Positions 12,618 through 60,466 of a stretch of 64,000 nt of DNA are shown here, in pieces. The stretch comes from a virus (lineage: Duplodnaviria; Caudoviricetes): IMG/VR virus record IMGVR_UViG_3300050821_001527, positions 96,001-160,000 of that record. One strand, written 5' to 3'. Within the stretch, counting starts at the first letter, position 1, and the number at the start of each line of letters is the position of its first letter. The translations under genes and the position numbers were made by a program. Below the pieces are notes generated by a model, which was not told the origin of the DNA, did no database searches, and was given only the letters and a program-made list of their open reading frames with translations.

Positions 12618-13001
12618 GGGGACGTAATGGTTTCGACATTTATTGTTGAAAGCCGAACGCAAGCACGGGATGATTGTTGGCCCGTTAAAAATTCAATCAA
12701 AACATAAATGCTAACAAAGTAGCACTTAGAAATGCAGTTGACTGCGGAGTAGTTCGCGGTTTTGCAGCATTTGCGATGGCTTAATGCCGTCCCGTCCACC
12801 ACTCCGATTCTCGCTACGAGTGAATGGGCGTAAAAACAGCGGGAAAAAACCCTAGAGCCGGTTCGAGGGTAACGGAACCGGATATTGATGGTGAGTTTTG
12901 CTGCCAGTGTAGCCAATCAAGAATATCAAAGGCTGATAAGCTTGTAGTGTTTTTCTTGCAAACGTAAGTGGACGCGGGTTCAACTCCCGCCGTCTCCACC
13001 A
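12618..13001 (+). ncRNA. ssrA: tmRNA; tag ANKVALRNAVDCGVVRGFAAFAMA* (12710-12784)
   Basis: GGGGACG..TGGTTTCGAC 5' end, T-arm GCGGG-TTCAACT-CCCGC, G3:U70, ACCA end, 384 nt, Ala-Asn-initiated tag. Confidence 0.95.
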
Positions 13002-25044: not shown

Positions 25045-25461
25045 ATGGAAGACGCCGTTCTCAACACGCAAAAAGCCTTGGACACCGCATTGGCATCATT
25101 GAATGCGCTGGCTAAAAAAGATTACGTTCCTCCGACAACCCCCGACATTGACCCCGAAACTGAAATGCCGATTAAAGGGAATGGCACGGAAGAATATGAT
25201 ACCGAAGACGCTTACGAGGATGGGGAAGAAGCAGTCCGTCTGTGCATTGAAATTGCCCAGTTGAGGCTAGAGGTCGAGGGCCAGCCCCGCCGTGCTATCG
25301 TCAACACGGAAAAGGCGGCAGAAATCCGAGCAAGGGGAGCGATTGACAAGGTAAGACCAGAGCGTCACCTGAGCGTTTCTCCCGAACTTATCAAGAGTAT
25401 CGAACATTCCGTAGCTAAACCGGAAATGATGTTCTTCGTTTTGGAAGAACCCAAGGAATAA
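25045..25461 (+). CDS. Acidic hypothetical protein
   Basis: 138-aa ORF between tRNAs. Confidence 0.65.
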   Translation: MEDAVLNTQKALDTALASLNALAKKDYVPPTTPDIDPETEMPIKGNGTEEYDTEDAYEDGEEAVRLCIEIAQLRLEVEGQPRRAIVNTEKAAEIRARGAIDKVRPERHLSVSPELIKSIEHSVAKPEMMFFVLEEPKE

Positions 25462-25467
25462 GATTTC

Positions 25468-25542
25468 GCGTTGTTGGCAGAGAAGTGATGCGCTTGCCTT
25501 CCAAGCAAGTTTAAGTGGGAGCATTACCCACACAACGCTCCA
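25468..25542 (+). tRNA. tRNA-Gly(TCC)
   Basis: Loop CTTCCAA, U73. Confidence 0.9.
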
Positions 25543-25545
25543 ATT

Positions 25546-25970
25546 TGTCCGAAGCTATAATCCCCGTGCGTAATAGCACTAAGCGCAAGTAGGCCGAAAG
25601 GCAGAACCGTGATGGTGGATGAACTGCTCGTCTAAAATATCGGCTACATAATTTAGTCAGGTCGTCGGTCTGTCGTTGCGGTGAGCAATCACCAAGCCTA
25701 TGGGACGGCGGCTCGAAAAGGTATCCGTAAGCTGGCAGGAATCGCTTGTGCAAGATTCCACTACCGAAGGAGAATGCGGCGAAAGCCAAGTTCGTTCGCA
25801 CTTGTAGTAGGTCAGTCATCTCAGCCGAGGCAGGCATTTTCAAAATCGTTAGGGTTAGTCCAACCACGGTAAAACGTGAGAGGGGTCATAAAAGACTGCA
25901 AGCGTCACCCTGCCTAAAACCCCCTGTTGGTGAGTGGATAGTTGAAAACGAGGTCAGCGATGACCTGACT
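25546..25970 (+). ncRNA. Candidate large (~425 nt) structured ncRNA
   Basis: No credible ORF or tRNA; GNRA-capped hairpins at 25593, 25680, 25778, 25952. Confidence 0.55.
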
Positions 25971-25973
25971 TTT

Positions 25974-26049
25974 AGCCGCATGGTGAAATTACAATCACAC
26001 AATCCTGCGAAGATTGAAGTCCCGGTGAGATTCCGGGTGCTGGCTACCA
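25974..26049 (+). tRNA. tRNA-Arg(GCG)
   Basis: Loop CTGCGAA, T-loop TGAGATT. Confidence 0.85.
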
Positions 26050-26053
26050 TTTT

Positions 26054-26128
26054 GCGACATAGGTGTTTATAGATACACGCGAGTCTTCCAAACTTGAGTA
26101 GTGAGTGCGATACTCACACGTCGCTCCA
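26054..26128 (+). tRNA. tRNA-Gly(TCC)
   Basis: Loop CTTCCAA, U73. Confidence 0.85.
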
Positions 26129-26192
26129 ATTTATGCACCCAAAACTTGCAAGTTACTCGACCCATGAATCGAGTGTGGTGCAACCAATTTAT

Positions 26193-26267
26193 TCCCTAGT
26201 AGTGTCAAAGTAGCACGTCTCCCTGTTAAGGAGTTTAGTGTTGGTGCGAGTCCAACCTTCGGAACCA
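26193..26267 (+). tRNA. tRNA-Asn(GTT), mismatched acceptor
   Basis: Loop CTGTTAA. Confidence 0.7.
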
Positions 26268-26279
26268 TTTAGTCAGCAT

Positions 26280-26364
26280 TCCAGAGTAGGAGAATTGGTA
26301 AACCCAGCGGACTGTTAATCCGCCGCGAAAGCAACTGCTCGTTCAAGTCGAGCCTCTGGAGCCA
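26280..26364 (+). tRNA. tRNA-Asn(GTT) with long variable arm
   Basis: Loop CTGTTAA, V hairpin GC-GAAA-GC, canonical GG/TTC elbow, G73. Confidence 0.85.
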
Positions 26365-59296: not shown

Positions 59297-60466
59297 ATGA
59301 AAATCTACGCCGAAAACACTCGCGTCCCAATCAAGTCTTGGTGTGAAAACCCGGAAGCCGGGGCTATCAAGCAGGCCGAGAACATGGCCAACCTGCCATT
59401 CACTTTCAGACACGTCGCCCTCATGCCCGACACCCATCAAGGCTTTGGTATGCCTATCGGTGGAGTTCTGGCTACCGATAACGTCATCATTCCGAACGCT
59501 GTCGGAGTTGACATTGGGTGCGGTATGTGTTCCATCGAATCCAACATCCAAACTTGGGACAGGGAACTGTTGACGGAAGCCATCAAGGAAATCCGCTACA
59601 ACGTTCCTGTCGGATTCAGCCGCCATCTTACCGCGAAGCCTGTGGACAAGCTGCCCGCCAGCACGTCCCCGAACGCCTACTATGAGAAGTTCCTTGAGCC
59701 GTCCCTGTTCCAACTCGGAACCTTGGGCGGCGGGAATCACTTCATCGAATTACAGAAGAACCCGAACGGAAATCTGTGCGTGATGATTCACTCTGGTAGC
59801 CGCAACATCGGGAAGCAGGTTGCCGACTATTACAACAAGCTCGCCCTCGCTCTGAACCAGCGTTATTTCAGTCAGGTCACGAAGGAAACCGACTTGGCGT
59901 TCCTGCCGCTTGACTCTGCCGAGGGTCAGGCTTACTTGGCGGAAATGACTTACTGTGTCGCGTTTGCCTTGGCGAACCGCATGGAAATGATGAACGCTTG
60001 CCAGCAAGCCATCTACAAGGTTTTCAAGCCTTTGCAACAGGTCGAGTTCACGAACTTCATCAACATTCCGCACAATTATGCGAAGGTTGAAAAGCACTTC
60101 GGCAAGGAAGTCGTCGTCCACCGCAAGGGCGCGACGAATGCCAGCGAGGGCGTCATTGGGCTAATCCCCGGCTCGCAGGGCACCAAGAGCTACGTGGTGC
60201 GCGGCAAGGGTAATCGTGAGAGCTTCGAGAGTTGCTCCCACGGCGCAGGCCGCAAGATGGGCCGCATGGTCGCCAAACGCACTCTGAACATCGAAGACGA
60301 GCAACGCAAGCTGGACGAACTTGGAGTCATTCATGCCGTCCGCGCCAACTCTGACTTGGACGAGGCTCCGGGTTCCTATAAGGACATTGACGTGGTTATG
60401 AGCGAGCAAACCGACCTGATTGACGTTATCGAAGAACGCACTCCTTTGGGAGTCGTGAAGGGGTAA
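59297..60466 (+). CDS. rtcB: RtcB RNA 3'-phosphate/5'-OH ligase
   Basis: MPDTH.G.G.PIG, GVDIGCG, GTLGGGNHFIE, HSGSR, HN, HRKGA, SHGAGR, DEAP.SYK. Confidence 0.97.
   Translation: MKIYAENTRVPIKSWCENPEAGAIKQAENMANLPFTFRHVALMPDTHQGFGMPIGGVLATDNVIIPNAVGVDIGCGMCSIESNIQTWDRELLTEAIKEIRYNVPVGFSRHLTAKPVDKLPASTSPNAYYEKFLEPSLFQLGTLGGGNHFIELQKNPNGNLCVMIHSGSRNIGKQVADYYNKLALALNQRYFSQVTKETDLAFLPLDSAEGQAYLAEMTYCVAFALANRMEMMNACQQAIYKVFKPLQQVEFTNFINIPHNYAKVEKHFGKEVVVHRKGATNASEGVIGLIPGSQGTKSYVVRGKGNRESFESCSHGAGRKMGRMVAKRTLNIEDEQRKLDELGVIHAVRANSDLDEAPGSYKDIDVVMSEQTDLIDVIEERTPLGVVKG

Follow-up and report, generated by a model that had tools for sequence, protein, structure and literature searches.

The raiA motif RNA (RF03072; Weinberg 2017, PMC5737381; Soares 2024, PMC10861870; He 2026, PMC12968392; cryo-EM structure 9ELY in PMC12286853) is a bacterial RNA, known above all from Bacillota and Actinomycetota and frequently encoded in the vicinity of the genes raiA and comFC. 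It is abundant, acts in trans and is bound by KhpA/KhpB, and its knock-outs show effects on sporulation, aggregation and c-di-GMP levels. Among the bacterial RNAs that still lack an assigned function, it ranks with the most abundant and the best conserved. The published surveys of this RNA covered bacterial genomes only; that of Soares 2024 (PMC10861870), which searched the bacterial genomes of GTDB, argued against horizontal transfer. In the literature that we searched, the raiA motif was nowhere tied to phages, viruses or tRNA arrays. GOLLD and ROOL are large structured RNAs that do lie next to tRNA islands in phages and prophages (PMC12286853, PMC5737381). Here we describe a stretch within a phage tRNA array that encodes a real, expressed, structured RNA of ~320 bases.

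The locus in a phage tRNA array

The window, by which we mean the whole 64,000-nt stretch of DNA that was analysed, corresponds to bases 96001-160000 of the 202,882-nt IMG/VR virus record IMGVR_UViG_3300050821_001527, a soil jumbo phage with a tmRNA (12618-13001) and several dozen tRNA genes in an array (ARAGORN, Rfam). When the whole window was compared to Rfam at gathering thresholds, tRNAs and the tmRNA were returned and nothing else. A previous sequence-only reading had pointed to about 425 nt between a tRNA-Gly and a tRNA-Arg without a tRNA or a credible ORF, and this gap was borne out by ARAGORN, by Rfam and by the lack of a conserved frame in the alignment described below. The gene order is Pro(UGG) - tRNA - Met - ORF - Gly - RNA - Arg(GCG). 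The tRNA-Arg(GCG)-like gene was called by Rfam and missed by ARAGORN; its anticodon loop, CUGCGAA, is that of Arg(GCG), and its acceptor register as read from the sequence pairs 25974-25980 with 26039-26045, followed by discriminator A26046 and an encoded CCA at 26047-26049. Its acceptor stem has two mismatches and its T loop is non-standard. Just downstream, at 26054-26125, lies a second tRNA missed by ARAGORN (Rfam, 32.3 bits), with a loop that we read as Gly(UCC)-like, a non-standard T loop and an encoded CCA.

An acidic ORF of 138 aa (25045-25461, + strand) sits in the array with tRNA-Met on one side and tRNA-Gly on the other. A pattern search of IMG/VR revealed no relatives of this ORF, and a related-loci search revealed none for a 448-aa ORF of the array. 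Clustering of the proteins that neighbour the homologs described below was dominated by stop-to-stop frames running through homologous tRNA genes and was uninformative, and promoter and terminator scans found sites no more frequently than in shuffles. Elsewhere in the window there is an RtcB-type RNA ligase (59297-60463, + strand; PHROG 1075, E 4e-113). The presence of RtcB, a tmRNA and many odd tRNA-like RNAs in one phage suggests a theme of RNA repair or ligation.

The stretch matches the raiA motif RNA

In a sensitive Rfam scan (25300-26300, E <= 10), raiA (RF03072) was the sole significant match other than tRNAs, extending over 25659-25966 and model positions 1-209 (54.9 bits; E 2.2e-12), a score that falls short of the raiA gathering score of 101.3. 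Of the 74 columns that are conserved at >=95% in 91 bacterial raiA RNAs, 51 are retained in the window; outside the columns that were fixed by the search pattern, 30 of 46 are retained, and of the columns lost, several are helix positions at which the change is compensated. The raiA-like RNA is present as a single copy in the phage genome, and a blastn search of GenBank phages with the stretch gave no match.

The sequence-only reading had put forward the stretch as a candidate of the GOLLD/ROOL class, in the form of a short variant or else as a new class, while conceding that it could be matched to neither by eye. The concession agrees with the Rfam scan and the GOLLD/ROOL proposal does not: GOLLD (RF01998), ROOL (RF03087) and OLE (RF01071) gave zero matches at E <= 10 on 25300-26300, and none over the whole window at gathering score. 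A short relative of one of these three would share the habit of GOLLD and ROOL of residing in phage tRNA arrays (PMC12286853), but given this silence and a fold that raiA accounts for, we leave that proposal next to no chance.

Relatives and their genomic setting

In IMG/VR, four contigs with a raiA-like RNA were retrieved by a pattern built on the 3' end of the raiA consensus (L136, 266 kb, 87.7 bits; L131 and L139, 58.7 bits; L141, 41.4 bits), in every one of which the RNA is within a tRNA array; L144 came from a 5' pattern. We then used a 22-base pattern particular to this type, with which 12 loci were obtained from metagenomes, along with two contigs assigned to Planctomycetota MAGs; in IMG/VR it recovered the five contigs already known and no others. 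Two loose 3'-motif patterns used on IMG/VR were rejected as giving chance hits only (118 loci screened by script, 8 by Rfam and eye). The search for metagenomic homologs thus provided 15 non-redundant relatives (viral, metagenome and two Planctomycetota-MAG contigs), which together with the window form an alignment of 16 sequences (A2). We sought a conserved reading frame among these homologs and found none: distances between conserved blocks take all three values modulo 3, and the most open frame varies relative to the anchors, so a protein-coding reading was rejected.

tRNA genes are found in the locus in 13 of the 15 relatives. In four of them (L158, L153, L151 and L154) the RNA has tRNA-Pro upstream and tRNA-Arg(CCU) downstream; L131 and L141 have tRNA-Arg(CCU) downstream and an uncalled tRNA-Pro(UGG)-like sequence directly upstream, and an upstream tRNA-Pro is also found in L136, L147 and L156. 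In several loci the spacers between the RNA and the flanking tRNAs measure 4-10 nt. From this setting we conclude that the raiA-like RNA has long resided in a tRNA-array cassette that these loci share. The link to the array is not absolute, since an 8-kb contig (L155; Ga0187892_10015864) carries a phage-type raiA-like RNA without any tRNA gene. A 1.3-kb contig (L149) likewise has no tRNA gene, and in L136, L151 and L154 the nearest tRNA is 0.6-1.1 kb from the RNA.

Two further observations concern these contigs. The tRNA-Pro(UGG)-like sequences (approximately L131:4535-4620, - strand, and L141:4915-4990, + strand) occupy ~85 nt between tRNA-Met and the raiA-like RNA and were missed by ARAGORN; the acceptor is CAGGCAC/GUGCCUG, CUUGGAA forms the anticodon loop, and the T loop has the unusual sequence UGCGAGU, an alteration common to many tRNAs of the window's phage. 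Separately, a canonical raiA RNA (188 bits) was found at the extreme end of a 27-kb contig classed as viral (L140:12-217; IMGVR_UViG_3300014526_000059), and a further contig (L138) shares its 3' end; the raiA RNA of L140 may belong to host DNA flanking a prophage.

A covarying raiA fold

As a single sequence, the stretch has an ordinary folding energy (z = -0.53), and hairpins alone therefore prove nothing; the evidence beyond chance is homology and covariation. RNAalifold on the alignment gave 53 pairs, with compensatory changes in 37. We then counted covariation by script over the 16 homologs. The 58 modelled pairs, PK1 included, were paired in 96.3% of cells (79.0 +/- 0.8% in column shuffles, none of 500 of which reached the observed value), and compensatory (double-sided) change was seen in 39 of the 58 (21.4 +/- 2.6 in shuffles). 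Sliding the partner by +1 or +2 columns dropped the pairing to 40-45%. All modelled pairs in the window are standard pairs. With a covarying structure and no conserved coding frame, the sequence-only reading was upheld in its view that the phage tRNA array harbours a large non-coding RNA with an intricate fold.

Using the published raiA architecture (He 2026, PMC12968392) for helix mapping, we found that the helices of the window map onto it one to one (Table 1). The GU and GGU bulges of P1 are those named as conserved in that study, in which P2 is optional and found in 42% of bacterial raiA RNAs. P4 of bacterial raiA RNA is a near-invariant CCAC/GUGG, whereas in the phage type both strands are altered together. 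P5 forms a three-way junction, a shape seen in single-sequence folds of 9 of the 16 homologs (window counted). The linker carries GU(A/U)AGUCC, which matches the conserved bacterial sequence leading from the linker into P6; upon comparison of UUAGGGUUAGU with UUAGA(C/A)GUAA of the linker, GU(A/U)AGUCC aligns and the 5' half is out of register by one base. Covarying pairs amount to 3/5 in P6, 3/4 in P7 and 4/5 at the base of P8, with 97-100% of cells paired. A column scan for PK2 (start of the linker with the P4-P1c strand) gave no clearly supported stack, and the P8 E-loop consensus AGUA/GAA was not evident when read in the window and the alignment. Two homologs carry insertions, one of ~100 nt in the P5 hairpin arm (L152:3706-4155, - strand) and one that makes P2 ~55 nt long (L149:65-438, - strand); we therefore regard the P5 arm and P2 as sites where the fold tolerates additions.

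Table 1. Features of the raiA-like RNA and its flanks, in window coordinates.
Feature	Position	Strand	Evidence
tRNA-Gly(UCC), encoded CCA, upstream neighbour	25468-25542	+	ARAGORN; Rfam tRNA 45.4 bits
Leader/spacer, ~110 nt, absent from the stable RNA	25543-25651	+	X2 depth 0; no Rfam match at E <= 10
Mature raiA-like RNA, ~320 nt; 5' end 25652-25654, 3' end 25971-25973	25652-25973	+	X2 cyclic contig; Rfam raiA
P1a, 13 bp (5' strand first)	25655-25667 with 25958-25970	+	compensatory change in 10/11 aligned pairs, 16 homologs
GU bulge (25668-25669) and 5' strands of P1b/P1c	25668-25677	+	invariant in 16/16 homologs
P1b, CUG/CAG	25670-25672 with 25955-25957	+	invariant in 16/16 homologs
P1c, UCGUU/AACGA	25673-25677 with 25947-25951	+	invariant in 16 homologs, one covarying pair
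P2, optional hairpin GGUGA-GCAA-UCACC	25680-25693	+	hairpin at junction in 7/16 homologs, absent in 9/16
P3a/P3b hairpin	25696-25722	+	covarying pairs: P3a 3/4, P3b 3/4
PK1, P3b loop with post-P5 linker	25709-25713 with 25823-25827	+	92% of cells paired; 2/5 covary, others nearly invariant
P4, AUCCGU/GUGGAU	25723-25728 with 25934-25939	+	4/6 pairs covary
P5 three-way junction (~85 nt): base helix 25731-25736/25811-25816, hairpin, arm	25731-25816	+	base helix 6/6 covary
PK linker: PK1 3' strand 25823-25827, then single strand ending UUAGGGUUAGU (25849-25859)	25817-25859	+	
P6 (25860-25864/25926-25930) enclosing P7 (25865-25878) and P8 (25882-25923)	25860-25930	+	
GGU bulge	25952-25954	+	invariant in 16/16 homologs
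tRNA-Arg(GCG)-like gene, encoded CCA, downstream neighbour	25974-26049	+	Rfam tRNA 36.6 bits at 25975-26045

This fold reassigns the four GNRA-capped hairpins on which the sequence-only reading had relied. All four are in the sequence, and not all are hairpins of the RNA. The first (GCC-GAAA-GGC, 25593-25602) lies in the leader, outside the stable RNA. The second (GGTGA-GCAA-TCACC) is P2, and the third (GGC-GAAA-GCC, 25778-25787) is the tip of the P5 arm. The fourth (GGTCA-GCGA-TGACC, 25952-25965) was misread, as in the conserved fold its bases make up the 3' strands of P1b and P1a.

Transcripts and ends

We examined four soil metatranscriptome runs (X1-X4) from four studies; the data are contigs, which give neither transcript levels nor true ends. 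X1 covers the whole stretch at 70x, which may represent DNA or the record's own source. X2 contains a 350-nt contig (depth 242) that maps to 25652-25834 and 25805-25971, with a joint from 25971 to 25652; 2 nt are common to both sides of the joint, leaving a 2-nt ambiguity of the ends. In the same run, depth is 0 over the leader and 0-2x beside the RNA, and the tRNAs downstream are uncovered. Contigs of low depth in X3 (25668-25952, 6.4x) and X4 (25706-25924, 2.4x) both fall inside the bounds set by X2, so that contigs of three runs from different studies cover the RNA and exclude its flanks. Since tRNAs are poorly recovered in such libraries, the gaps of X2-X4 over the tRNAs and beyond carry no information. 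X2 has another contig, of 151 nt (25304-25454; depth ~2), which covers part of the 138-aa ORF upstream of tRNA-Gly.

Because the 242x contig of X2 is a closed 320-nt cycle, we placed the ends of the RNA at the base of P1; this placement comes from one cyclic contig of one run, and the transcript evidence concerns the window's RNA. There is good evidence for a discrete RNA of ~320 nt that ends at the base of P1 and from which a leader of ~110 nt is removed, and the stable RNA is thus shorter than the extent of 25546-25970 first proposed, of which the initial ~106 nt belong to the leader. The last bases of the leader, directly preceding P1, are the A/U-rich ACAUAAUUU; in most homologs the 5' flank of P1 is also A/U-rich. 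At the other end, since the acceptor register of tRNA-Arg starts at A25974, RNase P would be predicted to cut at 25973|25974, which is within the 2-nt ambiguity of the joint.

These coordinates are consistent with the following pathway. The RNA would be transcribed within the tRNA-array transcript of the phage and cut out as a discrete species of ~320 nt, with its two ends held together by P1, the long closing helix. Its 3' end would be made by RNase P in the course of 5' processing of the neighbouring tRNA-Arg, its 5' end may come from a cut in the A/U-rich stretch that precedes P1, and the ~110-nt leader would be degraded. The sequence-only reading had supposed that processing of the flanking tRNAs would release the RNA precisely; this is plausible for the 3' end, while at the other side ~110 nt separate tRNA-Gly from the 5' end of the RNA.

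The stretch could instead be a structured spacer that has no role of its own and aids the maturation or stability of the tRNA-array transcript, as its position among tRNAs and its short distance from the flanking tRNAs in several loci might suggest. However, very divergent phages preserve the raiA core in full, down to invariant nucleotides in bulges and single strands; the RNA accumulates and the leader does not; and there are the loci, described above, that lack a tRNA gene (L155 and L149) or have the RNA well away from the nearest one (L136, L151 and L154). We consider a spacer unlikely.

The form of the X2 contig raises the question of whether the RNA, with its P1-held ends ligated after excision through a UUUU loop closing P1, is covalently circular in vivo. 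Its 350 nt equal 320 + 30, as an isolated cycle would give at k = 31, and only 2 nt are shared at the joint; a 13-bp helix has the two ends opposite one another at its base; and the phage encodes an RtcB RNA ligase. On the other hand, this is a single contig of a single run, and on a very abundant RNA a few reads with reverse-transcriptase template switches could close an assembly graph. RNase P yields 3'-OH and 5'-P ends, whereas RtcB requires 3'-P and 5'-OH. An Rnl-type ligase was not found (PF09414, none); a search for T4 Rnl1 (PF09511) gave no match and was uninformative, its controls being silent as well. The flanks hold no self-cleaving ribozyme (Rfam scan, 25300-26300). The head-to-tail joint is only a hint of circularity, and we hold a circular RNA to be possible though doubtful; if real, the joint would be the first sign of circularisation of such an RNA.

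Non-phage relatives and the position of the phage type

raiA RNAs exist outside Bacillota and Actinomycetota. Among 151 sampled Planctomycetota genomes, Rfam raiA matches were found in four, two of them above cut-off. Two of the Planctomycetota MAG RNAs pass the Rfam cut-off (L281, 114 bits; L282, 111 bits) and a third reaches 69 bits (L283); none of these three new RNAs has tRNAs nearby. Two more (L262, from a Blastocatellales MAG, and L206, from an Acidobacteria MAG) were retrieved by the bacterial raiA 3' pattern alone. The internal loop of P5 in L281 and L282 (GGGAG ... GACAAACCAC) resembles that of the phage P5 arm, while their P5 is a single arm, in contrast to the three-way junction of the phage type.

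A FastTree tree of 200 core columns placed the 16 phage-type RNAs together with L283 in one clade (support 0.957); the next branches are the Blastocatellales MAG (L262) and two Planctomycetota MAGs, with a joint support of 0.988. Since the tree is short and in effect unrooted, we treat it as a lead. By these core columns, the phage type may be nearest to the raiA RNAs of soil Gram-negative lineages, rather than to those of Bacillota or Actinomycetota, and the tree points to Planctomycetota or Acidobacteriota as the putative host.

The tree also bears on whether the stretch might belong to an unrelated new class of RNA that resembles raiA by chance or convergence. Such a view could appeal to the score below the gathering cut-off and to P4 and parts of PK1, which depart in sequence from a near-invariant bacterial consensus. 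Yet the match extends over the full model (E 2e-12), the changes of sequence in P4 compensate one another, the gap in score is bridged by L136 and by the Planctomycetota MAG RNAs (69-114 bits), and the phage type nests among raiA RNAs in the tree. Chance or convergence is thus a very improbable source of the likeness.

Discussion

Taken together, we assign a probability of roughly 0.8 to our main reading, namely that the stretch is a gene for a divergent, phage-type raiA-motif RNA which is excised as a species of ~320 nt, adopts the raiA fold and probably acts in trans. By analogy to bacterial raiA RNA, the most likely mode of action of the phage RNA is in trans, either as a stable structured RNA or as an RNP. 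Its target may be the translation machinery of the infected cell, which we infer because the phage RNA is fixed among tRNA genes and bacterial raiA RNA is often beside the ribosome-hibernation gene raiA; this link to translation is one of association only. In a bolder version, the RNA is cut by tRNA-processing enzymes and ligated into a covalently closed 320-nt circle; such a circle would resist nucleases and would mimic a host raiA-type RNP or compete with it, and so reprogram the translation state of the infected cell. We offer this as speculation, with somewhat lower odds than circularity itself.

The setting of the phage RNA among tRNA genes, in a phage with a tmRNA and RtcB, points to the translation and tRNA-processing machinery. 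The phage branch also separates the parts of the fold that are indispensable (P1b/c, P3, P4, PK1 and P6) from P5, which can be rebuilt, and indicates that raiA RNAs are a mobile class with members in soil lineages beyond Bacillota and Actinomycetota.

The phage RNA shares with GOLLD and ROOL a place beside tRNA genes in phages, and differs from both in showing no sequence or model similarity to them; they are also far larger and assemble into multimeric cages, whereas cryo-EM shows raiA as a monomer. The likeness to bacterial raiA RNA is extensive: P1a/b/c with GU and GGU bulges, an optional P2, P3a/b, P4, PK1 and a P6-P7-P8 junction; the conserved GUCUGU, GAGAGG, AGGUCAGC and GU(A/U)AGUCC; and one copy per genome that accumulates as a stable RNA. 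Unlike bacterial raiA RNA, the phage type has a P5 of ~85 nt in the form of a three-way junction instead of a hairpin, a total length of ~320 nt compared to ~200 nt, and altered P4 and PK1 sequences, in P4 by compensation. Its gene lies in the tRNA array of a phage, not in Bacillota or Actinomycetota next to raiA or comFC, a context that differs from that of all described raiA RNAs. The raiA-like RNA thus adds to the known raiA class a new variant that is carried by phages and bound to tRNA arrays.
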